Of a stretch of DNA of 20,000 nucleotides, positions 8,966-19,854 are shown in pieces (within the stretch, counting starts at the first letter, position 1; each line of letters begins with the position of its first letter). The translations under genes and the position numbers were made by a program. The DNA is from an uncultured virus (IMG/VR IMGVR_UViG_3300000304_000038) (lineage: Duplodnaviria; Heunggongvirae; Uroviricota; Caudoviricetes), in IMG/VR virus record IMGVR_UViG_3300000304_000038; one strand, given 5' to 3'. The notes under the pieces are model-generated. The model was not told the origin of the DNA and ran no database searches. It saw only the letters and a program-made list of their open reading frames with translations.

Positions 8966-9535
8966 TTACCACCTTCCATATCTCTTGGTATACTCTGCCA
9001 TAACGACACTTGCGGCACAGGCTAGATTCAAAGATCGCACAGAACCATATTGTCCGACATAGAGCATATCATCGCATTGCTCAATCTCTCTCTTGGTGAG
9101 ACCCTCGGACTCGTTTCCATAGACGAACGCCGCAGAGGGAACAATCTTTGCATCCCAGATGTTCTTTGGTTTATACTCCATGATGTTGTCCACGGCATAG
9201 ATTTGGTATCCGTCCCTATGCAGAACCTCAATAACCTCCTCAAGAGTGTCCGCGTGATAGACGGTTTCCAGATGATTGGTCCCGACAGCAGGGACGTGAT
9301 TGTACTTCTTGCGGCCAACCACATAGACCGCACGCCCAAGGAAGGCATTGTTACTGCGAATGATGGTACCGATATTGAGATTGTGGTCTGTGTTCATAAG
9401 AACAGTTACCATCTTGGTACGCATTGGCTGAAGGTCTGCTCGAATCTCCTCTGCGGCCATCGCCTTGTACTTCTCAATTACATTGTGGTCAGCATTTGGC
9501 TTGACCGGAATTCCATAAGAATACTGCTCAATCAT
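8966..9535 (-). CDS. SPOUT-class RNA 2'-O-methyltransferase (SpoU/TrmH family)
   Basis: NIGTIIRS (motif 1), FVYGNESEGL (motif 2), SVRSLNLACAASVV (motif 3). Confidence 0.9.
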   Translation of the reverse strand: MIEQYSYGIPVKPNADHNVIEKYKAMAAEEIRADLQPMRTKMVTVLMNTDHNLNIGTIIRSNNAFLGRAVYVVGRKKYNHVPAVGTNHLETVYHADTLEEVIEVLHRDGYQIYAVDNIMEYKPKNIWDAKIVPSAAFVYGNESEGLTKREIEQCDDMLYVGQYGSVRSLNLACAASVVMAEYTKRYGRW

Positions 9536-10280: not shown

Positions 10281-10892
10281 TTATTTTATCAAAGATTTTT
10301 GTTCATATTCGAGATAAATATCCATTAGTTGATTCCATTGTTCATTATAACAACGTAAAGAATCAATCATAATATCTGCTAATTGATGAATCTCCCATTG
10401 AGCATGAACGTTTCTACGCTGTTCAAGGAGATTGAAGAGAGAGCGCACATTTATTTTCATATGTAAATTTGTTTTTGTCGCTTCTGGCAAGATAAAACGA
10501 GCATCTTCCGCTCTAACGCCATTAGCAAGCATTTTTTTATATTCGTCAGCAATATAAGCCATATCTATTTGATACTGATATAGAAGATTTTTATCATTTT
10601 TGATGATTGGAGGAATTACATACCAATCTTCACTATCTAGTTTATATTTATTATAACGTTGTGATTCGACGCAATAAGAAGCTATGCGATGACGTGTCAG
10701 TTGAGCTAGACAACTTCTAGAGATACCTTCAATTTTGAAAGTCACATCAGCAAATTCGTGGACACTGTGGCGATCTAAAATACAACGTTTCACTCTATTA
10801 TATTGCACATCGTTTTTCCGAGTGCTTTGTCCAGCAGCTAACGAAATTGCATCAATAGGTTTTTCTGTCGCGTCAATAACAATTACTTTCAT
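10281..10892 (-). CDS. thyX: FAD-dependent thymidylate synthase
   Basis: ISRSCLAQLTRHRIASYCVESQRY signature, EDARFILP, HAQWEI. Start taken at the ATG overlapping the upstream TGA. Confidence 0.95.
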   Translation of the reverse strand: MKVIVIDATEKPIDAISLAAGQSTRKNDVQYNRVKRCILDRHSVHEFADVTFKIEGISRSCLAQLTRHRIASYCVESQRYNKYKLDSEDWYVIPPIIKNDKNLLYQYQIDMAYIADEYKKMLANGVRAEDARFILPEATKTNLHMKINVRSLFNLLEQRRNVHAQWEIHQLADIMIDSLRCYNEQWNQLMDIYLEYEQKSLIK

Positions 10893-11908
10893 TGGACACA
10901 TCCTCCTAATATATAGTCTAAAGAAATTCTATCTAAATCCCAATATGGTATTCTTAGCAATTTTATATTTTTTTCTTCAGCATAATTGTCTTTGATTGTA
11001 TCACGAACGATTCGTTTTTGAAAAGATTCTAAATTATTCCAGCCCCCTGTCGGTTTGAAGTGTTGCTCTCCGTCAAATTCAATCAATAAATTATATTTAG
11101 ACAAGAAGAAATCAAAACGTAGCTTTTTCCCTGTTTTTGGATTTAGACAATCATCAAAAGAATATTCTGATTCATAATCTATATTATTACTATCCAGTAT
11201 TTTTTTGATTTTTTGCTCTCCTAATGAATAAATACGAAGTTCCTGTCTTCCGTCTACTCCATTATACAAAACGCTTCTCAAACGAGTATAAAAGAAAACG
11301 TCTAATTCAGAATTATAAAATTTTCCATACCTAACTGGATTATTCTTTTTGTCTAAAATAGGAGAAAGTTCTTCTACAAATAAAATATTTTCTTTTATCC
11401 AATCTCCTTCATTATATTTTCTGTTATTATGAGCAACATCTTGAATAACTTCAATACGTCGTTGTTTCCTATGTTGAGGTCCCATTGTCACTCTATCGTG
11501 GATAGCAGAATTGAGTAAAACGTCAAAAACTTCATTAGAATAAATATCTTTGACTCGTAAAGTTCTTTTTCTTTCTCCTGAAGCTGTTTCTTTTGGAGTA
11601 CCTTCACTAATATAAATAAGAGTATTGCTTGGATTCACAAATTCTCCTAGAGAAAAATTATAGTGCCTTCTGCTTTGATACGATAATTCTCGCCTAACAG
11701 ATGGAGCATGTTTTACTGTCCCAGCGCGTACACTTCCTACTGATGCTGAAAATATATTTTCTCCATCAGGAGCATCTATGTCTTTTACTAAGATACGTCT
11801 TTCTTTTACGCCGGATAAAGATATATGAGGTTCTGCTTCCCCAATATAAACAAGATTGCCTTCTTTGTTTACTGGTTCATTTTCTTTGTATATTATTTTT
11901 CTTCCCAT
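10889..11908 (-). CDS. Free-standing homing-type endonuclease (three N-terminal repeats plus PD-(D/E)xK/Vsr-like domain)
   Basis: SLGEQKI...LRFDFFL...IEFDGEQHF...RDTIKD...LLRIPY; repeats YKENEPVN/FSLGEFVN/YNEGDWI; AT-rich. Confidence 0.8.
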   Translation of the reverse strand: MGRKIIYKENEPVNKEGNLVYIGEAEPHISLSGVKERRILVKDIDAPDGENIFSASVGSVRAGTVKHAPSVRRELSYQSRRHYNFSLGEFVNPSNTLIYISEGTPKETASGERKRTLRVKDIYSNEVFDVLLNSAIHDRVTMGPQHRKQRRIEVIQDVAHNNRKYNEGDWIKENILFVEELSPILDKKNNPVRYGKFYNSELDVFFYTRLRSVLYNGVDGRQELRIYSLGEQKIKKILDSNNIDYESEYSFDDCLNPKTGKKLRFDFFLSKYNLLIEFDGEQHFKPTGGWNNLESFQKRIVRDTIKDNYAEEKNIKLLRIPYWDLDRISLDYILGGCVQ

Positions 11909-12950: not shown

Positions 12951-13039
12951 GGCGGAAACAAGAGGTCACGCTCCCCAACGAGTCTCCCCGTCACACCGCT
13001 TTCGAGGCGGGTGCAGCACGCTTGTCTGCTTTTGTTTCC
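12951..13039 (-). tRNA. tRNA-Ser(CGA)
   Basis: GGAAACA/TGTTTCC acceptor, loop CT-CGA-AA, long variable arm, G73; ends CC-TA. Confidence 0.85.
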
Positions 13040-13050
13040 GTAATATCTTA

Positions 13051-13139
13051 TGGCGGAAGGAGGATGTAACGCTCACCATACCCTTTCGGGCACCAACCGC
13101 TTTCCAAGCGGCGCTGAAGACTTCTTCAGTTCACCTTCC
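13051..13139 (-). tRNA. tRNA-Ser(GGA)
   Basis: Loop TT-GGA-AA, long variable arm, G-CCA. Confidence 0.88.
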
Positions 13140-13142
13140 ACA

Positions 13143-13232
13143 TGGCGGGGTAATAGGATTACGATTCCTATGGACGCAAGGCCCACGCTGGACTTAGCAG
13201 GTCCGCCCAAGTCCCCCTTGGTTATCTACCCC
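13143..13232 (-). tRNA. tRNA-Ser(GCT)
   Basis: Loop CT-GCT-AA, long variable arm, G-CCA. Confidence 0.88.
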
Positions 13233-13252
13233 ATATATTTTATATTATATAC

Positions 13253-13567
13253 TTACCAATAGTAAGTTGTAAAGACAAATCTTGGTTCAGGCATCTCAAC
13301 ATCAGCCGCAAAGACCCTATGAAATGCCACCCATGTCTTGTGCTTCCACTCTTGGATAAGATTAGAATTTAGCATCGCTCGATTGATATCATCTTCAGTA
13401 AGTCTAACACCGAAGAAGATATTGCTATCATCCTCATAGGCGTTTAGGTCGATTATCTCGTCATAATAGGGGTCTCTCTTATCTTGAAAGTCCTCACATA
13501 TAAGCACACATTTTGACTGAGGTAAAGTGATACCATACCCGAGAAACCCCTCAATTTCGACACTCAT
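13253..13567 (-). CDS. Hypothetical protein (104 aa) within the tRNA array
   Basis: Own promoter and AAGGAG SD. Confidence 0.8.
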   Translation of the reverse strand: MSVEIEGFLGYGITLPQSKCVLICEDFQDKRDPYYDEIIDLNAYEDDSNIFFGVRLTEDDINRAMLNSNLIQEWKHKTWVAFHRVFAADVEMPEPRFVFTTYYW

Positions 13568-13599
13568 AAAAATAACTCCTTTCCTCTTTTGACATATAC

Positions 13600-13629
13600 A
13601 TTATACACCAATAGAAGGAAAGGAGTCAA
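13600..13629 (-). promoter_or_regulatory. Promoter TTGACT-18-TATAAT embedded in an RBS-pairing inverted repeat
   Basis: -35 at 13624-13629, -10 at 13600-13605. Confidence 0.78.
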
Positions 13630-13638
13630 GAAAAATTA

Positions 13639-13713
13639 TGGAGTGCGGCCTTGGAGTCTAACCAAGCTAAACGATTTTGCAGACCGTTGTATAATACGCC
13701 CTACCCGCCGCAC
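13639..13713 (-). tRNA. tRNA-Cys(GCA)
   Basis: Loop CT-GCA-AA, U73-CCA. Confidence 0.88.
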
Positions 13714-13716
13714 ACA

Positions 13717-13791
13717 TGGAGGTCTGCCCGAGTGCTGCCCTCGGAATTGAACCTTACGAAAGTTCTGTAATAGCTGTTTTACTAGCAGACC
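13717..13791 (-). tRNA. tRNA-Thr(CGT)
   Basis: GAACT-TT-CGT-AA-GGTTC arm, CCA end. Confidence 0.85.
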
Positions 13792-13801
13792 AATTATTCA
13801 A

Positions 13802-13876
13802 TGGAGCCGATTCCGGGTGACGCTCCCGGCGTCTTTGCCTTACCACGGCAATGTTTTGCTGCTAAACTAAATCGGC
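13802..13876 (-). tRNA. tRNA-Thr(GGT)
   Basis: TTGCC-GT-GGT-AA-GGCAA arm, GCC acceptor start, CCA end. Confidence 0.9.
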
Positions 13877-13879
13877 GTA

Positions 13880-13953
13880 TGGTGCCCAGTGAAGGTTATG
13901 CTCCTCCGTCTAAAGCTTGTAAGGCTATCATTCTACTATTGAACTAACCGGGC
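13880..13953 (-). tRNA. tRNA-Val(TAC)
   Basis: Loop CT-TAC-AA, A-CCA. Confidence 0.88.
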
Positions 13954-13956
13954 ATA

Positions 13957-14032
13957 GGTGGAGCTGGTGGAAATCGAATCCACGACCTATCGCTTGCAAG
14001 GCGATTGCTCGTCCCAACTGAGCTACAGCCCC
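13957..14032 (-). tRNA. tRNA-Ala(TGC)
   Basis: G3.U70 pair, loop CT-TGC-AA, canonical TTCGA; ends CC-TA. Confidence 0.93.
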
Positions 14033-14035
14033 ATA

Positions 14036-14113
14036 TGGTACCCACGGCATGACTCGAACATGCGACCTACTCATTCGTAGTGAGGTATTCTAAATCCGCT
14101 GAACTACGTGGGC
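14036..14113 (-). tRNA. tRNA-Arg(ACG)
   Basis: Loop CT-ACG-AA, TTCGA T-loop, CCA. Confidence 0.92.
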
Positions 14114-14454
14114 ATAATATCATCAAACTCGCCCGCAAGATAGAGCTTGGGAATGTTGTGTCCGGGCCTCAACTTGCGGTCGGTCAGATATTCAATGTTC
14201 ATCCAACTGCCATCTTTTGCTCTAAGAAAGCAATGAAACATCTTAGTATTCATATCATAGGTATATTTAGAATCCAAAAGGAGTATCTGGTTCGTATAGG
14301 CGACAATGATTTTATCTTTGCTCTCCTCCAAGGCCATGTCCGCAGTTTCAAGATTGTAGGAGACTCCATTCGCCGCATCGATATTTATTTGCGGATATAG
14401 TCTCCATCTTGCGTTTTTGACAAGCGGACCGTCCTCGAAATAAACTATTAGCAT
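14104..14454 (-). CDS. Hypothetical protein (116 aa); stop codon lies inside tRNA-Arg(ACG)
   Basis: AAAGGAG SD; fills the gap between two tRNAs. Confidence 0.8.
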   Translation of the reverse strand: MLIVYFEDGPLVKNARWRLYPQINIDAANGVSYNLETADMALEESKDKIIVAYTNQILLLDSKYTYDMNTKMFHCFLRAKDGSWMNIEYLTDRKLRPGHNIPKLYLAGEFDDIMPT

Positions 14455-14480
14455 AAGATACTCCTTTGATAATTTTTATA

Positions 14481-14554
14481 TGGCAGGCCCGGAAGGTACC
14501 GCCCCCTCGCTACGAAGTTTGGAGCTTCGCGTGCTCCTATTACACCACGGACCT
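14481..14554 (-). tRNA. tRNA-Trp(CCA)
   Basis: CGAAG-CT-CCA-AA-CTTCG arm, G-CCA. Confidence 0.9.
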
Positions 14555-14557
14555 GTA

Positions 14558-14631
14558 TGGCTGCTCTTCTAGGTGCCGCCCCTAGGACTTAACATCCAAA
14601 GTGTTAGGTTTTACTGTTAAACTAAAGAGCA
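14558..14631 (-). tRNA. tRNA-Gln(TTG)
   Basis: U1-A72, TAACA-CT-TTG-GA-TGTTA arm, G-CCA. Confidence 0.88.
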
Positions 14632-14634
14632 ATA

Positions 14635-14708
14635 TGGCTGGACTTAAAGGTGCTGCCCCTTTTTCTATTGAGTCAGAGTCAATCGTTTTACTGTTAAACT
14701 AAAGTCCA
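14635..14708 (-). tRNA. tRNA-Gln(CTG)
   Basis: U1-A72, loop CT-CTG-AC, G-CCA. Confidence 0.9.
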
Positions 14709-15446
14709 ATCATCATCTGAAATGCTACAAATCTCTCTCTTTTTAAATGGAAGATTATAAAATATACACCATTTCCTAATTGTGTTATCTCTAACACCAT
14801 ATTCTTTTCCTATTGCAGTGAAAGTTTGAGTTCTAATTTTAGATTTTAATTCTTCTCTAGAAGGTCTTTCTACTTTTCTTCTATTCTCCGCACTACATTC
14901 TGGACATAAAAGACTATAATCTGTTTTTAATTCTTTTCCACATTCTTGGCAGTATCTTTTTGGTCTTTCTATATAGGTTTTATTTTTACTTCCAAAAGTA
15001 GGTAATTGCCTATCGCAATTTGGACATACCCAACGAAGATTTTCAATTCTATTGTCTGTATGGTCTCCATTGATATGGTCTAATGTCAGAGTCAATTCTT
15101 TGTTATTCCATACAGGAGGCAATCCACAGATAGCACATTTATACTCTAATAAATCATGTTGCTTAATATATCTCTTAATATAGTTCATGGAAGCACTAGA
15201 ATGCTCGCAAAAAGAATTCTCAAAAGTTCTTTCTTCTTTTTTTGATGCCATAGCGCAAAAATGAGAATAGTCTATATTATTATCTTCTAATACAGCTCTA
15301 ACTATATCGTTTTGTTTTCCTCCGCTAACACACTGATAACCTATTTTTCTTTCAACTTCCTTAAAAGAAAACGAATTTGCAACAATTTCTCTTAATTCAT
15401 CAACGGGTATTTGTGAGACTAAGCTATTCATTGATTTCGACCGCAT
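14694..15446 (-). CDS. HNH homing-type endonuclease
   Basis: CAIC...LTLDHINGDHTDNRIENLRWVCPNC, a second Zn finger, and a C-terminal HTH-like segment; AT-rich; AAAGGA SD. Confidence 0.9.
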   Translation of the reverse strand: MRSKSMNSLVSQIPVDELREIVANSFSFKEVERKIGYQCVSGGKQNDIVRAVLEDNNIDYSHFCAMASKKEERTFENSFCEHSSASMNYIKRYIKQHDLLEYKCAICGLPPVWNNKELTLTLDHINGDHTDNRIENLRWVCPNCDRQLPTFGSKNKTYIERPKRYCQECGKELKTDYSLLCPECSAENRRKVERPSREELKSKIRTQTFTAIGKEYGVRDNTIRKWCIFYNLPFKKREICSISDDDWTLV

Positions 15447-15562
15447 AAACAAAATCCTTTCTTAGACAATAATATGTTGAGTTATATAAATACAAATTTA
15501 AAAAAGAGATTTTTATTTATAACGGCCCATAGATTTTCCTTTTTATAAATGAAAGTGCGAAA

Positions 15563-15697
15563 TTACTTATTCTGAGCCGCTTCCAGCTTCCAAATCTTTC
15601 TCTGAGTCTTCTGGAGAACGCCAGTCCCCTCAGAGTTCTTGCCGTTCAGAAGTAGACGCTGGTAGCGTGCCTTTAGAACCTCGATATCATTTGACAT
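15563..15697 (-). CDS. 44-aa hypothetical protein (MSNDIEVLKARY...)
   Basis: AAAAGGAG SD upstream of the ATG at 15697; the longer ORF-track start overlaps a tRNA. Confidence 0.65.
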   Translation of the reverse strand: MSNDIEVLKARYQRLLLNGKNSEGTGVLQKTQRKIWKLEAAQNK

Positions 15698-15733
15698 ATA
15701 TATTCTCCTTTTGTCTCTTGGATAATGACCATA

Positions 15734-15825
15734 TGGTGCGACCGACTCGACTTGAACGAGCAATGTGGTTTCTAAGCCACGCTACTTTAGGAGAGTAGTG
15801 CCTTATCCGATTAGGCTACGGCCGC
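15734..15825 (-). tRNA. tRNA-Arg(CCT) with long variable arm
   Basis: CTACT-CT-CCT-AA-AGTAG arm; extra arm GTGG-CTTAGAAA-CCAC; TTCAA T-loop; A-CCA. Confidence 0.88.
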
Positions 15826-15830
15826 ATAAA

Positions 15831-16039
15831 AAAAGAATACAATATAGAGAAGAGGGAGATAGGACTTTCATCTTACTTGGGCTTTCTCTGTATTATGGGA
15901 CTTATTGTATGCGCGCTTTTATTCGTCCCTGTCGGACCTCGGTGTTACTTATTCCGGCTTTTCACACCTACTACCTTCACCAATGCTGCTTCATAGCCGC
16001 GTATTCACCCAAAGCCTATTCTCTATATTGTATTCTTTT
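15831..16039 (-). ncRNA. Candidate ~209-nt structured RNA closed by a perfect 21-bp stem
   Basis: 15831-15851 and 16019-16039 are exact reverse complements; no credible ORF; strand inferred from the array. Confidence 0.55.
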
Positions 16040-16045
16040 GTAAAA

Positions 16046-16210
16046 TGTCAGCCTGTCCCCACCGACTTCTGACCCGACAAGCCATGTCTCCCAAGAGGTT
16101 GAGTGTGCGGCAAGAAGAAGCTAGCTAGTCTCCTTCTCACGGTCCTAACCAACGGTTACTAGTACGTTGGCGGATAAGCCTTTCACCAGCTCTCTGTGTC
16201 CCATCCATGA
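16046..16210 (-). ncRNA. Candidate ~165-nt multi-hairpin RNA
   Basis: GC-rich intergenic stretch with hairpins CCAACG/CGTTGG, GAGAAGGAG/CTTCTTCTT and GGCTTGTC/GACAGGCT. Confidence 0.45.
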
Positions 16211-16217
16211 TTATATA

Positions 16218-16559
16218 TTACGCTTTTTCCTTCAACTTGTCTACAACAAAATTGTATTCCTTTTCAGGAAGAAAACTTCTGGGTGCGCACTCGAAGAATA
16301 GGTCAACTTCCTCGGGAGACAATTCAACTCCCATGTAAAGCATCTTGTAACAATTGTGAGCAAAAGCGTATCTATCCTGAAATACGCTCTCATAGGGAAT
16401 TATTGCATCATCAAGTCTATCCAATAGAGAAATAGCTTTGCTGTATGCCTTTCTCTCTTCTCTTGAGAGAGAGGAGAGGTTCTTGTCTTGCGGGATAAAG
16501 TCATAACAAAAATCTTCGACAGCTCTCCGCAAGTCACAAAGCTTTGAATACTTACTCAT
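16218..16559 (-). CDS. Hypothetical protein (113 aa; likely start MSKYSKL)
   Basis: GAGGAG SD; ATG overlaps the upstream gene end. Confidence 0.75.
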   Translation of the reverse strand: MSKYSKLCDLRRAVEDFCYDFIPQDKNLSSLSREERKAYSKAISLLDRLDDAIIPYESVFQDRYAFAHNCYKMLYMGVELSPEEVDLFFECAPRSFLPEKEYNFVVDKLKEKA

Positions 16560-16842
16560 TTCTCTCCTCTTCTTGCGGCCAGAAATCCTCGTTGGAATAG
16601 CATAGCTTTGCACCGGGACAAAGATAGACCCAACAGTTGCGCTCGGTAGAATACCAGCGGCTAAGTCCGATAGTACCAAATGCGACTATTATCTCTTCAT
16701 CTCTTGAATCAACATGACAACAGCCTTTGATAAGACAGTATACGGCGGCTCGCCGCACCTTGAAGGAAGGATGGGAATAGGAAAGTTGATATAGATGGAA
16801 AAGAGGCGTGCCCTTTCGCCGCAAATAATCAAACTCACTCAC
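16552..16842 (-). CDS. Hypothetical protein (96 aa, GTG start)
   Basis: AAAGGA SD; coupled to the next ORF. Confidence 0.65.
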   Translation of the reverse strand: MSEFDYLRRKGTPLFHLYQLSYSHPSFKVRRAAVYCLIKGCCHVDSRDEEIIVAFGTIGLSRWYSTERNCWVYLCPGAKLCYSNEDFWPQEEERNE

Positions 16843-16871
16843 TACTTCATCCTTTCTCTTGGATAATTGAA

Positions 16872-16953
16872 TGGTAGCCGCACCCGGTTACGCTCCGAGG
16901 TCTGATGGCTGAGAACCATCCGGGCTGCTATTACCCNNNNNNNNNNTGCGGCC
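16872..16953 (-). tRNA. tRNA-Glu(CTC), contains a 10-N assembly gap
   Basis: GATGG-TT-CTC-AG-CCATC arm, GGCCGCA/TGCGGCT acceptor, CCA; Ns at 16937-16946. Confidence 0.85.
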
Positions 16954-16956
16954 ATA

Positions 16957-17031
16957 TGGTAGCGGATGGGGGTTACGCTCCCCCTTCTCTGGCTTGAAAG
17001 GCCAGCGAATTTACTATTGTTCTAATCCGCC
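16957..17031 (-). tRNA. tRNA-Glu(TTC)
   Basis: CTGGC-CT-TTC-AA-GCCAG arm, CCA. Confidence 0.9.
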
Positions 17032-17655
17032 AATAAAATATTTCCAAAAATATCCATATGCGCTTTTTCTTTTACCTTTGATTACTTCGGTAATATGCTG
17101 TGTTTTTCTTTCAGATCCTAAAAAACGTCCAGCCTCTTTTATAGATTCAAATATTTTCAATACTTGAAAAGTTTCTTTATCGCACATTGCAACCTTGTGA
17201 CTAAATAGCTTTTTTGCTTGTTTGCTTTGAGATAAAATTTCTACTCCATATTCTTTACAAGCTGTTCTCACGGTTCGTTCATTACAACCAAAATAAGAAG
17301 CAGTTTGTTGTTCATTGAGTAATTCAAGATATTTATTTGCTATTTCTTTATAGTTATAAAATTGTTTTCCATCTCCCCCACGAGTAGCATTATAACCATA
17401 ATGATAAGTGTTTAGTTTATCTATCCAATATTCTTCTCTGGCAGGAGCTTCTTCTGGAGAACATTCTTCTAATTCTTCAATAGAAAAATGTTCTACTCCA
17501 TATTTATTCATAGCACTATAAAGAGGACGTTTTTTGCGTCTTATTCTTTGTCTCTCTTTCTTGTGTTCTTCAAAACGGTCTTCTATCGTTTTATTAGTTT
17601 TACCAACATACTGTTTGCCATTTATATCATTAGTAATTACATAAATAAAGGCCAT
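17014..17655 (-). CDS. GIY-YIG homing-type endonuclease with C-terminal NUMOD1/IENR1-like module
   Basis: FIYVITN...QYVGKT...RFEEH...REEYWI...GYNATRGG; C-terminal FESIKEAGRFLG...KSAYGYFWKY. Confidence 0.9.
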   Translation of the reverse strand: MAFIYVITNDINGKQYVGKTNKTIEDRFEEHKKERQRIRRKKRPLYSAMNKYGVEHFSIEELEECSPEEAPAREEYWIDKLNTYHYGYNATRGGDGKQFYNYKEIANKYLELLNEQQTASYFGCNERTVRTACKEYGVEILSQSKQAKKLFSHKVAMCDKETFQVLKIFESIKEAGRFLGSERKTQHITEVIKGKRKSAYGYFWKYFIGGLEQ

Positions 17656-17765
17656 GATTCCCAACTTTCTACCCAACATCTGAATAAACAGATGGGCAGG
17701 TGGTTGGGTTTATTCACTTTTCACTAAGCTAGCTACTTCTTAGCTAGCCTATCTGTTATTAACAA

Positions 17766-17841
17766 TGGTCGGACTAGAAGGTTCTGCCCCCTCTCCACAC
17801 CGCCCCAAACGGTGGATGCTACTGTTAAACACCATAGTCCG
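17766..17841 (-). tRNA. tRNA-Pro(TGG)
   Basis: C1-G72, CACCG-TT-TGG-GG-CGGTG arm, A-CCA. Confidence 0.9.
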
Positions 17842-17966
17842 TTTTCTATACCAAATGGGGCGCAGCGTTTATTACCTTCATACTGACCTTCCTGCGCATC
17901 ATTGTTTATAGTGGTGCTCAACCACTGAGAACACTTGATTTGTTTGGCCCTTTGGTACCTAAATTA

Positions 17967-18039
17967 GGAGCGGCTGACCAGACTCGAACTGGCACTAACG
18001 ACTTGGAAGGACGTGGTGCTACCGTTACACCACAGCCGC
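17967..18039 (-). tRNA. tRNA-Gly(TCC)
   Basis: GCG acceptor start, loop CT-TCC-AA, U73; ends CC-TA. Confidence 0.92.
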
Positions 18040-18042
18040 ATA

Positions 18043-18118
18043 TGGGGTGACTATTTGGATTTGAACCAAAGCTAAGTGAGTCACAGTCACTTGTGCTGAC
18101 CTCTACACTATAGCCACC
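18043..18118 (-). tRNA. tRNA-His(GTG)
   Basis: Encoded G-1:C73, loop CT-GTG-AC, CCA. Confidence 0.93.
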
Positions 18119-18122
18119 AATA

Positions 18123-18197
18123 GGAGCGGCACAGGGGCTATGCTCCCCTCACTTTTGCGTTGGCAACGCAATGCTCTTCTGAATGAGCTAGTGCCGC
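18123..18197 (-). tRNA. tRNA-Gly(GCC)
   Basis: TTGCG-TT-GCC-AA-CGCAA arm, U73; ends CC-TA. Confidence 0.88.
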
Positions 18198-18207
18198 ATA
18201 TAAGACA

Positions 18208-18284
18208 TGGCGCGAATGGCGGGACTTGAACCCGCGACCTCCTGATTGACAATCAGGCGTTCTAACCAGCTGAACTACACCCGC
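18208..18284 (-). tRNA. tRNA-Asp(GTC)
   Basis: CCTGA-TT-GTC-AA-TCAGG arm, G-CCA. Confidence 0.92.
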
Positions 18285-18288
18285 ATAT

Positions 18289-18362
18289 TGGTTGCAAGGT
18301 CCGGTAACGCTCCGGCTTGTAAGCGCTTATGAGACGCTTCGAGAACTTTCCTCCCCCTTGCA
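18289..18362 (-). tRNA. tRNA with CAT anticodon (Met; Ile2 not excluded)
   Basis: AGCGT-CT-CAT-AA-GCGCT arm, U1-A72, short D-arm, A-CCA. Confidence 0.8.
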
Positions 18363-18365
18363 ATA

Positions 18366-18441
18366 TGGTCGCAGTGACTAGAGTCGAACTAGCTGTCTCT
18401 GGCTTATGAGGCCAGCATGGAAACCGTTTCACCCCACTGCT
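18366..18441 (-). tRNA. tRNA-Met(CAT), initiator-like
   Basis: A1.G72 mismatch, CTGGC-CT-CAT-AA-GCCAG arm, A-CCA; lacks the full three G-C anticodon pairs. Confidence 0.82.
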
Positions 18442-18447
18442 ATATAT

Positions 18448-18549
18448 GAGAGAACAACCTTCTACAAGGCACCAGCGAAGGCCAAGTGACAAGCTTGACT
18501 CTTTCCTTGCGGGAGCACTGGTATCTGGGGTGTGACCCTTTGCTCTCTC
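18448..18549 (-). ncRNA. Candidate ~100-nt structured RNA at a transcript 5' end
   Basis: Closing stem GAGAGAGCAA/TTGTTCTCTC; inner ACCAGTG/CGCTGGT; GCAA tetraloop. Confidence 0.5.
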
Positions 18550-18561
18550 TTGTCGATGAAT

Positions 18562-18591
18562 ATTATACAACAAGTCAAAGACTGTTGTCCA
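18562..18591 (-). promoter_or_regulatory. Promoter TGGACA-18-TATAAT
   Basis: -35 at 18586-18591, -10 at 18562-18567; the spacer is itself a hairpin. Confidence 0.65.
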
Positions 18592-18593
18592 TA

Positions 18594-18727
18594 ATATTTT
18601 TGGAAAACACTAGTTGAAATCCCAAGCTTATGCGAACTGGTGGCAATGCGACTAATGCTCTCCAAAAATATGACTGATTTTTTGATCTTTCCACTGTAGC
18701 AGGAACTCTCTTGGAAAAAATCAGTCA
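18594..18727 (-). ncRNA. Two abutting long-stem hairpin elements (18594-18671, 18671-18727)
   Basis: 21-bp stem with three G.U pairs only on the minus strand, and a perfect 13-bp stem. Confidence 0.5.
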
Positions 18728-19236
18728 AAAACCATTAGAAACCGCTGCGACGTTTCAGGGTATTTTACTCGGTGCCCCGCGTCCAAGTATCCGAGACCGG
18801 TTTTCCTCTGTTTTAGTGAGTGACAAGTAAACCGCGTTGAAACCCCATACCTCCAACTCATTCTTTCTTCCAGTAGTCCGATCGGCTTAGTCACTATGGA
18901 AGCGAAGAACCTAAGAGAGGAGAATTCGTTTTTGGACAGAACCAATCCTCAAAGCATAACTGTTGGTGGTGAGGAAGTAAAAAATAGCATTAGTCTTGCA
19001 GGAAGTGGCTGTTGCTTTCTTTACACCTCGTCGTTCGGCGTATCAGTTTTTTACTGACACGCTGCCTCATGCCGCAAACCCCTATGGCGCGACAACTATT
19101 CGAACCAGCCCTACGCGAGTGACGCATTCTCCTCTTTCGAGTAACCCATTCTCGGGCCTTATGCTACCAGAGTTATTCGCTCTGACAGGGAACTTCGAAT
19201 CCGCTGCTCTCCACTCAGAACCGTCTTATAGCCAAA
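18728..19236 (-). ncRNA. Candidate large (~500 nt) structured ncRNA in the tRNA array
   Basis: No credible ORF; many hairpins and several long-range helices (see findings). Confidence 0.6.
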
Positions 19237-19239
19237 ATA

Positions 19240-19313
19240 TGGTGGTCTCGACAGGTAACGCTCCTGTGTTTTGGGTTTATCAGACCCATGTACTACTTTT
19301 GTACGACAAGACC
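19240..19313 (-). tRNA. tRNA-Ile(GAT)
   Basis: TGGGT-CT-GAT-AA-ACCCA arm, A-CCA. Confidence 0.9.
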
Positions 19314-19315
19314 AA

Positions 19316-19581
19316 TGGTACGCCCGCTCAGGATCGAACTGAGATCGAAGGATTACTTACTACGTCGCTTTCACATCGTAGTCTGGACTTTATCTTCTTC
19401 TCTTGGAGAAGCCTCGTGTAAAGTCTCTACACATAGATTCAAGAAGAATCCTTGCTCGGTATTGGCGTATTGCATTTGCAACTTAGCTTCCACCGACTTA
19501 GCGAGGTTTTCCACTATTGGTTGCCCAATAGCGCTCCTAATTAGTCAAGAGTCCCCTATTCTACCATTGAACTACGGGCAC
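19316..19581 (-). tRNA. tRNA-Lys(CTT) split by a group I intron (exons 19548-19581 and 19316-19355)
   Basis: Joined exons give a complete cloverleaf: GTGCCCG/CGGGCGT acceptor, GGGGA-CT-CT|T-AA-TCCTT arm, TTCGA, A-CCA. Confidence 0.9.
19356..19547 (-). mobile_element. 192-nt ORF-less group I intron at tRNA position 35/36
   Basis: 5' exon ends in U paired to G in P1 (CUCU|UGA...UUAGGAG); P7 elements GUAGAGACUUU and AAGAUAAAGUCC; terminal G. Confidence 0.9.
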
Positions 19582-19593
19582 GTATAAACAATA

Positions 19594-19678
19594 TGGTCCC
19601 GCCTCTAGGTACCGCCCCTAGCCAGTCATAGACACAGGTTTTACAGACCTGCTCACGTCTTTAGTGATATACGACGGG
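19594..19678 (-). tRNA. tRNA-Tyr(GTA) with C1-G72
   Basis: CAGGT-CT-GTA-AA-ACCTG arm, small variable stem GTC-TAT-GAC, A-CCA. Confidence 0.85.
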
Positions 19679-19681
19679 ATA

Positions 19682-19757
19682 TGGTGGAACCCCCGGTAAT
19701 CGAAACCAATCCTTGGGTTTTTCAGACCCACGTGCGCACCAGCTACACCAGAGTTCC
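19682..19757 (-). tRNA. tRNA-Phe(GAA)
   Basis: TGGGT-CT-GAA-AA-ACCCA arm, A-CCA. Confidence 0.92.
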
Positions 19758-19760
19758 ATA

Positions 19761-19854
19761 TGGTCGGACGTCTGTGATTCGAACACAAGATTCGCGCTAA
19801 TCTGGCACTAATACACTTTATAGGAGTGTTGTTTTTCTACTAAACTAACGCCCG
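19761..19854 (-). tRNA. tRNA-Ile(TAT)-like with long variable arm and C33
   Basis: CGGGCGT/ACGTCCG acceptor, ACACT-CC-TAT-AA-AGTGT arm, extra arm GTGC-CAGATTA-GCGC, TTCGAAT, A-CCA. Confidence 0.8.

Follow-up and report, generated by a model that had tools for sequence, protein, structure and literature searches.

Linked D-loop and T-loop substitutions in the elbow of fifteen transfer RNAs encoded by an uncultured phage

The stretch of DNA analysed here, referred to in its full length of 20,000 nucleotides (nt) as the window, originates from an uncultured phage (IMG/VR IMGVR_UViG_3300000304_000038) and contains, at 12951-19854, an array of 27 transfer RNA (tRNA) genes, all on the minus strand, counted by means of ARAGORN, Rfam, a scanner of our own and, for the class II genes and one interrupted gene, folding by hand. 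In 15 of these genes the elbow formed by D-loop and T-loop displays three linked changes, namely G18:U55 → A18:G55, U54:A58 → A54:U58 or G54:G58, and pyrimidine 60 → purine 60; this pattern covaries in related tRNAs, is conserved along with compensatory changes in the stems and occurs widely in phage contigs. The 15 genes, hereafter called swapped, probably encode working elongator tRNAs whose elbow core would represent a different form of the T-loop motif.

The swapped elbow and its genes

The T-loop reads AGCRUNR (R, purine; Y, pyrimidine; N, any nucleotide) in nine genes (Ser-CGA, Ser-GGA, Thr-GGT, Val, Glu-TTC, Glu-CTC, Gly-GCC, the Met gene at 18289-18362 and Ile-GAT) and GGCRGNA in six (Thr-CGT, Trp, Gln-CTG, Gln-TTG, Pro and Tyr), A54 being accompanied by U58 in 9/9 and G54 by G58 in 6/6 cases. 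The D-loop presents A18-G19 in place of G18-G19 in all 15, as in AATAGTA, AACAGTA, AAAAGTA, AGCAGCA and the Trp loop AATAGGA, which corresponds to A18 G19 G20. These matched T-loops and the AG replacement had been noticed in a sequence-only reading of the window, together with the prevalence of GG among the tRNAs that keep T55 and the exception of Ile-TAT, and all of this is borne out by the present counts: G18-G19 is found in 10 of the 12 window tRNAs having T55, the exception being Ile-TAT (A18) and a second oddity being Cys. Two further properties had escaped that reading, namely the covariation of position 60 and the separability of the 18:55 and 54:58 swaps. Indeed, position 60 is a purine in 15/15 swapped tRNAs (A in 14, G in one) and in Ser-GCT, and a pyrimidine in 11/11 window tRNAs with T54 and A58. 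Ser-GCT itself (13143-13232; T-loop ATCGTAA, i.e., A54:U58 and A60 with U55; ARAGORN -ps80) is swapped at 54:58 and 60 only and keeps G18-G19.

Replacement of G18, T54, T55 and A58 is complete (15/15), as is the conservation of G19 and C56 (15/15); R57, the G53:C61 pair and the discriminator/acceptor features are also retained, and every one of the 15 genes has U33, a purine at position 37 and a sense anticodon. The elements kept in the acceptor region include those that we take to be identity elements for the bacterial synthetases, namely U1:A72 and G73 in both Gln tRNAs, A1:U72 and G73 in Trp, C1:G72 and A73 in Pro, and U73 in Gly. Seven amino acids (Tyr, Pro, Glu, Gln, Trp, Val and Thr) are represented in the array by swapped tRNAs alone.

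At the low-coordinate end of the array lie two class II swapped genes, Ser-CGA (12951-13039; T-loop AGCGTGA, D-loop ACAAGCGTG), called by ARAGORN at lowered threshold, and Ser-GGA (13051-13139; AGCGTTA), called by no tRNA finder, for which the hand fold yields an acceptor stem of 6/7, a T-stem of 4/5 and the anticodon loop TTGGAAA. These are followed by Thr-CGT (13717-13791; T-loop GGCAGCA, D-loop AACAGCTA; ARAGORN -mt; 21/21 stem pairs in our own scanner), Thr-GGT (13802-13876; AGCGTCA and AGCAGCA; Rfam 46.1 bits; 21/21), Val-TAC (13880-13953; AGCATAA and AATAGTA; 52.8 bits; 20/21), Trp-CCA (14481-14554; GGCGGTA and AATAGGA; 41.7 bits; 21/21), Gln-TTG (14558-14631; GGCGGCA and AACAGTA; 46 bits; 21/21) and Gln-CTG (14635-14708; GGCAGCA and AACAGTA; 49.5 bits; 21/21). 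Glu-CTC (16872-16945; AGCGTAA and AATAGCA; ARAGORN -mt) is complete except at its 5' end, where a run of N at 16937-16946 masks the first nine bases (16937-16945). The remaining swapped genes are Glu-TTC (16957-17031; AGCGTAA and AATAGTAA; 50.6 bits), Pro-TGG (17766-17841; GGCAGAA and TTAACAGTA; 21/21), Gly-GCC (18123-18197; AGCATAG and ATTCAGAA; 46 bits; 21/21), the CAT tRNA designated Met (18289-18362; AGCGTTA, with the 5-nt D-loop AAAGT; ARAGORN -mt), Ile-GAT (19240-19313; AGCGTTA and AAAAGTA; 53.1 bits; 21/21) and the class II Tyr-GTA (19594-19678; GGCGGTA and TAAAGAC; by hand, acceptor 6/7, D 4/4, anticodon 5/5 and T 5/5).

That such genes may score low in tRNA finders, as had been anticipated, turned out to be the case. 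Default ARAGORN reports 12 array tRNAs, among them 3/15 swapped genes, and its mitochondrial mode 23; the Rfam tRNA model reports 16 at gathering score, a 17th (Arg-CCT) appearing in the E-value run only. At the gathering score of RF00005 (29 bits) 8/15 swapped genes pass, with 41.7-53.1 bits, and the other 7/15 are not reported by this model even at E up to 10. Since standard finders miss swapped genes, the tRNA complements of phages are under-counted. Our own scanner, which requires four stems with at least 20 of 21 pairs, U8, U33 and R37 and ignores the sequence of D- and T-loop, accepts 10/15 swapped genes, with 20-21 of 21 stem pairs, and seven non-swapped genes of the window; it misses some class II, short-D-loop and interrupted genes, which were folded by hand. 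A complete cloverleaf, with stems of 7 bp (acceptor), 3-4 bp (D), 5 bp (anticodon) and 5 bp (T) and with anticodon and T-loops of 7 nt, can be drawn for all 15, apart from the masked 5' end of Glu-CTC. The five swapped genes not accepted were folded by hand or by ARAGORN -mt, Ser-GGA, Tyr and Met (18289-18362) by hand on account of short D-loops or connectors of 3-4 nt, and in Tyr, Ser-CGA, Ser-GGA and Met there is at most one mismatch per stem in the hand fold or in that of ARAGORN.

Covariation and occurrence beyond the window

The relatives considered are IMG/VR contigs reached through the neighbouring SPFH gene and labelled L001 etc. In the window and 27 related loci our scanner found 146 tRNAs; after shuffling of these 443,890 bases it found none on either strand. 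The 54:58 combination in these 146 tRNAs is U:A in 119, A:U in 17, G:G in nine and A:A in one, no other combination occurring. Our rule for locating positions 18/19 misassigned several D-loops longer than 7 nt (e.g., AATAGGTA, taken as AG) and for this reason the 18:55 counts rest on 7-nt loops, in which G:U occurs 29 times, A:G ten times and G:C twice, A:U and G:G being absent (Fisher 1.6e-9, uncorrected for relatedness). After removal of duplicates there are 141 distinct tRNAs, in which, in counts uncorrected for shared ancestry, G55 accompanies a swapped 54:58 in 22/26 cases vs 2/115 for the unswapped, a purine occupies position 60 in 26/26 tRNAs with swapped 54:58 and a pyrimidine in 114/115 of those with U54:A58. 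The 18:55 and 54:58 swaps are coupled. That the two pairs are also separable units follows from the existence of single-swap tRNAs, consisting of ATCGU with G18 in Ser-GCT of the window, Asn of L006, Ile-TAT of L012 and L022 and Gln of L025, and of UGCAA with A18 in Cys of L001 and Leu of L003. On the scanner count, relatives contain 0-4 tRNAs with either swap and the window contains 10, a number that rises to 15/27 with the hand-folded genes.

The outer pair 19:56 also covaries in a few genes. In Cys-GCA of the window (13639-13713; T-loop TTAGACT, D-loop GGCGTATT) position 56 is A and the D-loop may offer U19 for a U19:A56 pair, and A19:U56, preceded by G18, is found in tRNAs of three relatives, Lys of L009 (L009:8834) and Thr of L012 and L022 (L012:8633, L022:535), with T-loops TTTGATT and TTTGAAT. 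In a distant relative of 169 kb, L024, Ile-TAT (ATCAATA; L024:6320) and a CAT tRNA (ATCGACA; L024:10549) carry A54...A58...A60, the arrangement of eukaryotic initiator tRNAs; the one A:A case among the 146 tRNAs stems from L024.

The orthologues of individual genes show how the loops change on conserved stems. The Tyr tRNA is present in five contigs, the SPFH proteins of the relatives being 47-79% identical to that of the window; its T-stem is identical in all five and the loop is GGCGGTA in the window and AGCGTTA in the four relatives, a clean G54:G58 → A54:U58 exchange. In the alignment of the four distinct Tyr sequences 8/24 stem pairs are changed on both sides and 95.8% of the cells are paired, compared to 29-46% with a slid partner. 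Comparable conservation is seen for Ser-CGA (L005:5435-5530; 89% identity by column, with compensatory changes in acceptor and D-stem), Glu-CTC (L006:15758-15811; 100% over 54 bases), Glu-TTC (87.5% in L006), Pro-TGG (L001:5241-5313; 97%), Gly-GCC (L001:2199-2271; 83.6%, with AGCATAA and ATTCAGTA) and the swapped CAT tRNA (L006:14074-14144; 98.6%). The contention that compensated change, and not decay, is at work finds support here, as the cloverleaf persists among orthologues by virtue of compensatory changes in the stems, and the notion of an alternative elbow is upheld by the matched pairs of the clade tRNAs and of the IMG/VR cloverleaves described below. When the loops are ignored, the closest match to a swapped tRNA is in most cases a tRNA of the same anticodon from another contig, often with a different elbow, as with Ile-GAT of L006 (AGCATTA) and L004 (TCCAATT, 75%), Glu-TTC of L023 (GGCAGTA) and L009 (TTCGATT, 72%), and Gln-TTG of L025 (ATCGTGG) and L016 (TTCAAAT, 75%). 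This suggests repeated switching of the elbow among same-anticodon tRNAs and goes no further than a suggestion because shared identity elements inflate the similarity of the stems. Concerning the Tyr tRNA itself, four nt, not two, separate acceptor and D-stem, 7:66 is always unpaired and 1:72 is C:G in the window and L006 and G:C in L009, L012 and L022.

Two pattern scans of IMG/VR, both requiring TAGT at positions 8-11 and a 7-nt D-loop and thus representing samples and not a census, extend the pattern to other phages. The first, with A18, G55 and A60 fixed and with R54 and G or U at 58 free, gave at least 107 distinct matches, comprising at least 99 cloverleaves; these come from at least 97 loci, and no fewer than 12 amino acids are represented among their anticodons. 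Among the matches listed, the 99 cloverleaves have 54:58 as G:G in 51 and A:U in 48 cases and never as A:G or G:U; the eight listed matches lacking a cloverleaf show mixed combinations, A:G and G:U included. The second scan, with A54, G57, U58 and A60 fixed and positions 18 and 55 free, yielded among the matches listed 94 distinct cloverleaves in which 18:55 is G:U in 56 and A:G in 38, none of the 14 other combinations being represented, and 15 matches without cloverleaf in which the combinations are mixed; 36 of the 38 A:G cases, again among the matches listed, belong to loci already obtained in the first scan, so that the new loci alone give 56 G:U and two A:G. Overall, the swapped 54:58 form occurs in at least some 100 phage contigs among the matches listed.

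In cellular genomes the pattern searched for was A18-G19 in a 7-nt D-loop with G55-C56, positions 54, 58 and 60 being free and the matches being judged by eye; it matched its positive controls three times in G005 and once in G013. Three metagenome-assembled genomes (MAGs) having homologues of the SPFH gene gave 0 matches. For the phylum to which one of these MAGs belongs, 401 genomes were scanned; 90 of them contained a match, a number similar to that obtained with a reversed control pattern, and two matches, both with UGCAA loops, were tRNA-like. In the matches where 54/58 read A...U or G...G, no pairing D-stem was seen by eye. In 121 Patescibacteria genomes 28 matches were found vs four controls, some 20 of them being tRNA-like (CAT, Gly-GCC, Cys and others), and by eye all of these had U54-G55-C56-R57-A58 and a pyrimidine at 60, as in TGCAATT and TGCGAAT. 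A18:G55 on its own is, therefore, a feature that occurs in cellular tRNAs, and the combination of a swapped 54:58 with R60 was not seen by eye in any tRNA-like match from these 401 + 121 genomes of two phyla with 7-nt D-loops.

Structure, precedents and possible causes

In a review of the T-loop, as far as its available text goes, the canonical elbow is described as having U54:A58 stacked on G53:C61, U55 stacked on U54 and in contact with G18, a C56-G19 pair and nucleotides 59-60 flipped out, and U54 (A54 in eukaryotic initiators only), U55, A58, G18 and pyrimidine 60 are held to be conserved, with no G55 mentioned in that portion (PMC7912444). With the canonical elbow (RF00005) the swapped tRNAs share the cloverleaf, the 7-nt T-loop closed by G53:C61, G19:C56, R57, U33/R37 and a CCA that is mostly encoded; from its set of G18:pseudouridine 55, G19:C56, T54:A58, R57 and Y60 they differ at 18, 54, 55, 58 and 60, in matched sets. 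In the elbow proposed here, the base intercalating from the D-loop and its partner would be A18:G55 instead of G18:U55, the T-loop would be closed by A54:U58 or G54:G58 instead of U54:A58, and the bulged nucleotide 60 would be a purine instead of a pyrimidine. Nothing is altered in the outer G19:C56, R57, G53:C61, the four stems or the anticodon loop, so that the L-shape should persist and with it the docking face, the flat face of G19:C56 being, according to the part of the source available, the surface on which the ribosome and other readers dock (PMC4810234). It is expected from the sequences that the swapped tRNAs would fold, be charged and be used in translation. On chemical grounds the lack of U54, U55 and G18 is predicted to preclude m5U54, pseudouridine 55 and Gm18, and m1A58 likewise where 58 is U or G. 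These considerations also bear on the earlier suggestion that the altered elbow may evade elbow-reading host factors or nucleases. No result here directly supports evasion of nucleases, and that of elbow readers finds no support as worded: the docking pair G19:C56 is unchanged in 15/15, so that readers docking by shape should be unaffected and only enzymes acting on 18, 54, 55 and 58 could be. Of the overall interpretation first given to these genes, compensation, the alternative elbow and the low finder scores are thus retained and the evasion of elbow readers is not.

The closest structural parallels come from T-loops outside tRNA. The accessible part of a survey gives, for riboswitch and intron T-loops, the consensus YGNRA with an intercalator that is almost exclusively adenosine, placed between positions 4 and 5, reports that various 1-5 pairs are tolerated and cites an rRNA T-loop GGAAG (bioRxiv 10.1101/2022.12.26.521914). 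As in the phage tRNAs, the T-loops of flavin mononucleotide (FMN) and cobalamin riboswitches have G at position 2 (= 55) and an adenosine from the partner loop (= A18), and T-loops outside tRNA have a purine at position 4 (= 57), two bulged nt after the motif and, in rRNA, G...G closing; mostly they close with Y:A, a closing A:U not being mentioned in the accessible part (bioRxiv 10.1101/2022.12.26.521914). A18:G55 may accordingly be the general T-loop solution placed in a tRNA, in preference to the tRNA-specific one, and GGCRG resembles the rRNA variant. The phage tRNAs are unlike riboswitch T-loops in that position 3 is, as in other tRNAs, a C paired with G19.

Among tRNAs, the Patescibacteria type shares A18:G55 and G19:C56 and keeps U54, A58 and the pyrimidine at 60, which are swapped in the phage set; U54-G55-C56-R57-A58 with pyrimidine 60 is found in 0/15 swapped tRNAs of the window and in two of the relatives (Cys of L001 and Leu of L003). 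A60 is a feature of eukaryotic initiator tRNA. From this initiator, in which the available text places A54:A58 (PMC7912444) and with which the phage tRNAs share a purine at 54, they differ by U58 or G54:G58, by G55/A18 and by being elongators of many identities, and A54:A58 occurs in 0/15 swapped window tRNAs. A natural tRNA without G18-G19 and U55 and hypomodified, like the phage set, is the non-proteogenic (NP) tRNA-Gly of staphylococci, which, in the portion of the source at hand, serves a cell-wall role with one amino acid and a shortened anticodon loop, whereas the phage set has normal anticodon loops and many identities (PMC13443448). Its exclusion from translation is attributed, in the same portion, to missing EF-Tu determinants and not to the elbow (PMC13443448). 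For A18:G55, A54:U58 and G54:G58 in natural tRNAs no description was found in the literature searched, where subscription journals were mostly missing. Suppressors from randomised D/T-loop libraries represent laboratory selection in one E. coli suppressor, as opposed to natural phage genes; Zagryadskaya, Doyon and Steinberg reportedly found in 2003 functional suppressors with G54:G58 and G54:A58 among them, which are said to be mimics of the reverse-Hoogsteen pair, the 54:58 pair holding nucleotides 59-60; such a role would account for the linkage of 54:58 with position 60 observed in the phage tRNAs. A54:U58 is not known to have been reported from that selection.

Five hallmarks that reviews assign to tRNAs of all domains (U54, U55, A58, G18 and pyrimidine 60) are all replaced here in natural genes, in matched sets, and nature provides covariation evidence for three elbow contacts, namely 18:55, 54:58 together with 60 and, in a small number of genes, 19:56. 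If the elbow is read correctly, the tRNA T-loop would be tied to the general T-loop motif, a tRNA class without the "universal" m5U54 and pseudouridine 55 is predicted, and the swapped loops would constitute ready variants for studying what TrmA, TruB and T-loop nucleases require, as well as for orthogonal tRNAs.

Several points weigh against this reading. The ability of A54:U58 and G54:G58 to take the place of the reverse-Hoogsteen pair is suggested by covariation and, for G:G, by what the selected suppressors reportedly showed, and the covariation counts are uncorrected for shared ancestry; the IMG/VR scans are samples restricted to TAGT at 8-11 and 7-nt D-loops; the 18:55 rule has an exception in Ile-TAT, where A18 occurs together with U55; the contigs from RNA libraries that cover parts of the array in relatives do not show transcription; and the NP tRNA-Gly of S. 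aureus, without G18-G19 and U55, is kept out of translation according to the available text (PMC13443448).

As to why phages carry the swapped elbow, roughly equal weight can be given to a near-neutral exchange among workable elbows and to an advantage derived from not depending on, or being invisible to, T-loop-specific host enzymes. The former is a possible explanation: several T- and D-loop combinations would work about equally well and the genes would wander among them, through double substitutions or recombination within arrays, with no special benefit, phage tRNAs evolving fast in huge populations and having no need to fit every host enzyme. The change of state between Tyr orthologues (G:G in the window, as opposed to A:U in four relatives), the single-swap intermediates, the stem neighbours of like anticodon and other elbow (72-75%) and the homing endonuclease genes within the array (HNH 14694-15452, GIY-YIG 17014-17679), which could drive gene conversion, are what such wandering predicts; that the swaps co-occur far above independent drift (22/26 vs 2/115), that no swapped-54:58 match from the cellular genomes searched was recognisable as a tRNA and that 15/27 in one phage is a large excess over the relatives is harder to reconcile with it. 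Under the latter explanation, which may be held with some reserve, the T-loop would have been selected as a non-substrate for host factors acting on U54, U55 or A58, among them TrmA, TruB and T-loop-cutting or T-loop-modifying tRNases or toxins, so that a translation-competent set of tRNAs persists when the host tRNAs are attacked or modification enzymes are limiting. The T-loop of tRNA is the cleavage site of at least one contact-dependent inhibition toxin. The chemical exclusion of m5U54 and pseudouridine 55, the swapped 54:58 in about 100 phage contigs among the matches listed with no tRNA-like counterpart seen by eye in 401 + 121 cellular genomes, and the contrast between 15/27 in the window phage and 0-4 in relatives, which fits a lineage-specific pressure, agree with selection of this kind. 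On the other hand, 12 tRNAs of the same array are canonical, so that the phage set would still be disabled by an attack directed at canonical T-loops in general, the G19:C56 face is unchanged and no T-loop-directed nuclease or defence gene was identified in this analysis. In its strongest form, put forward here as a conjecture, phages would maintain a second tRNA-elbow architecture, largely their own, selected for folding and working without the host T-loop modification enzymes and for invisibility to whatever attacks or marks U54-U55; if this were true, the T-loop, hitherto not considered a battleground, would be the object of an arms race that has left its trace in the uneven spread of the design (15/27 in the window, 0-4 in relatives).

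Other explanations fare less well. It is improbable that the swapped tRNAs are non-translational, i.e., charged and diverted from the ribosome or acting as sponges for tRNA-binding host proteins: the NP tRNA-Gly of S. aureus provides a precedent of a tRNA without G18-G19 and U55 that is excluded from translation, yet this exclusion is laid, in the available text, to EF-Tu determinants (PMC13443448), the 15 genes stand for 15 anticodons, 11 amino acids plus a CAT tRNA, and overlap with canonical members for CAT only, their U33/R37 anticodon loops are intact, their acceptor identity features are kept and their T-stems are ordinary and G:C-rich (G52:C62 in 21/24 G55 tRNAs). It is quite unlikely that the phage merely copies an elbow standard in the tRNAs of its own host, a premise to which the A18:G55 with U54:A58 of Patescibacteria and one distant homologue of the neighbouring SPFH gene in a Saccharibacteria MAG lend some substance, and against which stand the 12 canonical tRNAs of the array and most tRNAs of the relatives, the 0 pattern matches in the three MAGs with SPFH relatives and the absence of a swapped-54:58 tRNA-like match with 7-nt D-loops from 401 genomes of one phylum and 121 of Patescibacteria. 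Decaying pseudogenes or an assembly artefact, which the low tRNA-finder scores could have indicated, are hardly credible in view of the intact stems, the compensatory changes between orthologues and the recurrence of the same loops on independent contigs from many samples.

The rest of the array, the phage and its relatives

The 27 tRNAs of the array have 26 different anticodons, the only duplicate being CAT. A canonical elbow is found in Ala-TGC (13957-14032; TTCGATT, GG in the D-loop), Arg-ACG (14036-14113; TTCGAGT, GG in the D-loop), Arg-CCT (15734-15825), Gly-TCC (17967-18039) and His-GTG (18043-18117), the latter two found by ARAGORN, Rfam and our own scanner, Asp-GTC (18208-18284; Rfam 73.1 bits), the second CAT tRNA (18366-18441; TTCGACT), Lys-CTT (19316-19581) and Phe-GAA (19682-19757). 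The variable arm of Arg-CCT is a hairpin of 20 nt, compared to an ordinary variable loop of 5 nt in L001, L017 and L020. Ile-TAT (19761-19854; T-loop TTCGAAT, D-loop AGTAGAA, with A18 and U55) has a long variable arm, class-II-like, whose hairpin of 21-24 nt with the loop motif CCAGATTAG or similar is conserved in the window and four relatives (L003:12781-12870, L006:12341-12431, L016:9657-9745 and L023:2579-2667). Lys-CTT, parsed by hand (T-loop TTCGATC, D-loop AATGGTA), is interrupted in the anticodon loop by an insert of 192 nt (19355-19546), whose junction can be read in the manner of group I introns, with U as the last nucleotide of the 5' exon and G as that of the insert; the insert matched no Rfam intron family even at E up to 10 and no homologue in the relatives examined, in which the Lys-CTT genes are uninterrupted. 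A low-threshold ARAGORN call of Leu-TAG in 19033-19230 was excluded on account of an unconvincing fold. At the 3' end most genes encode CCA followed by TAT (CCATAT), and Gly-GCC, Gly-TCC, Ala and Ser-CGA have CC followed by T instead of CCA.

The window also encodes the large subunit of a type II topoisomerase, PhoH, ThyX, a dCMP deaminase, a SPOUT methyltransferase, an RlaP-type nucleotidyltransferase and several HNH and GIY-YIG homing endonucleases, two of whose genes lie inside the tRNA array as indicated above (both on the minus strand), others being directly beside the topoisomerase and ThyX genes (1580-2653 and 10889-11908, both on the minus strand). The SPOUT-class 2'-O-methyltransferase (8966-9535, minus strand) lies under every NCBIfam cut-off, its nearest models being RlmB, TrmH and TrmJ; a tie between this enzyme and the swapped elbows was discarded, the gene being present in one of five complete relatives, at variance with the numbers of swapped tRNAs in these. 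Among GenBank phages, near and distant DNA searches gave no match to the tRNA array and the Trp-Gln-Gln stretch, and the stretch 17766-18362 matches solely through its canonical Asp, His and Gly-TCC genes. Since the homologues of the window proteins in GenBank phages are just ~30-40% identical, no cultured relative and no host can be assigned; assignment of a host from MAGs was likewise rejected, the SPFH-gene homologues being binned with Collinsella, Saccharibacteria and Lachnospiraceae, in mutual conflict and in loci without tRNA arrays.

The public sequencing runs containing parts of the window, of which they hold at best a share of ≤31% of the sampled words, are all labelled bird or chicken gut. 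Contigs from four RNA-library runs, with 90-99% likeness, extend over parts of 12951-16059, among them the Ser genes and the Trp-Gln-Gln stretch; transcription, ends, strand and level cannot be read from these contigs, DNA may be present, and a lack of cover elsewhere carries no meaning. In three relatives a ROOL RNA (RF03087, 305-318 bits) lies within or adjoins the tRNA array (L001:3372-3940, L004:6076-6632 and L005:4858-5421), and neither Rfam nor blastn found one in the window. Two relatives with terminal repeats have lengths of 133-144 kb. The stretches 18442-19240 and 15826-16220, without convincing open reading frame, tRNA or Rfam match, are 78-92% conserved in L006 and may be structured RNAs of no assigned kind; a 705-nt contig from an RNA library, with a depth of 140, overlaps 15949-16059. 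Finally, in a related RNA-library contig whole blocks of the array are replaced, with joints at 13234/13563, 13668/13851 and 13955/14479.

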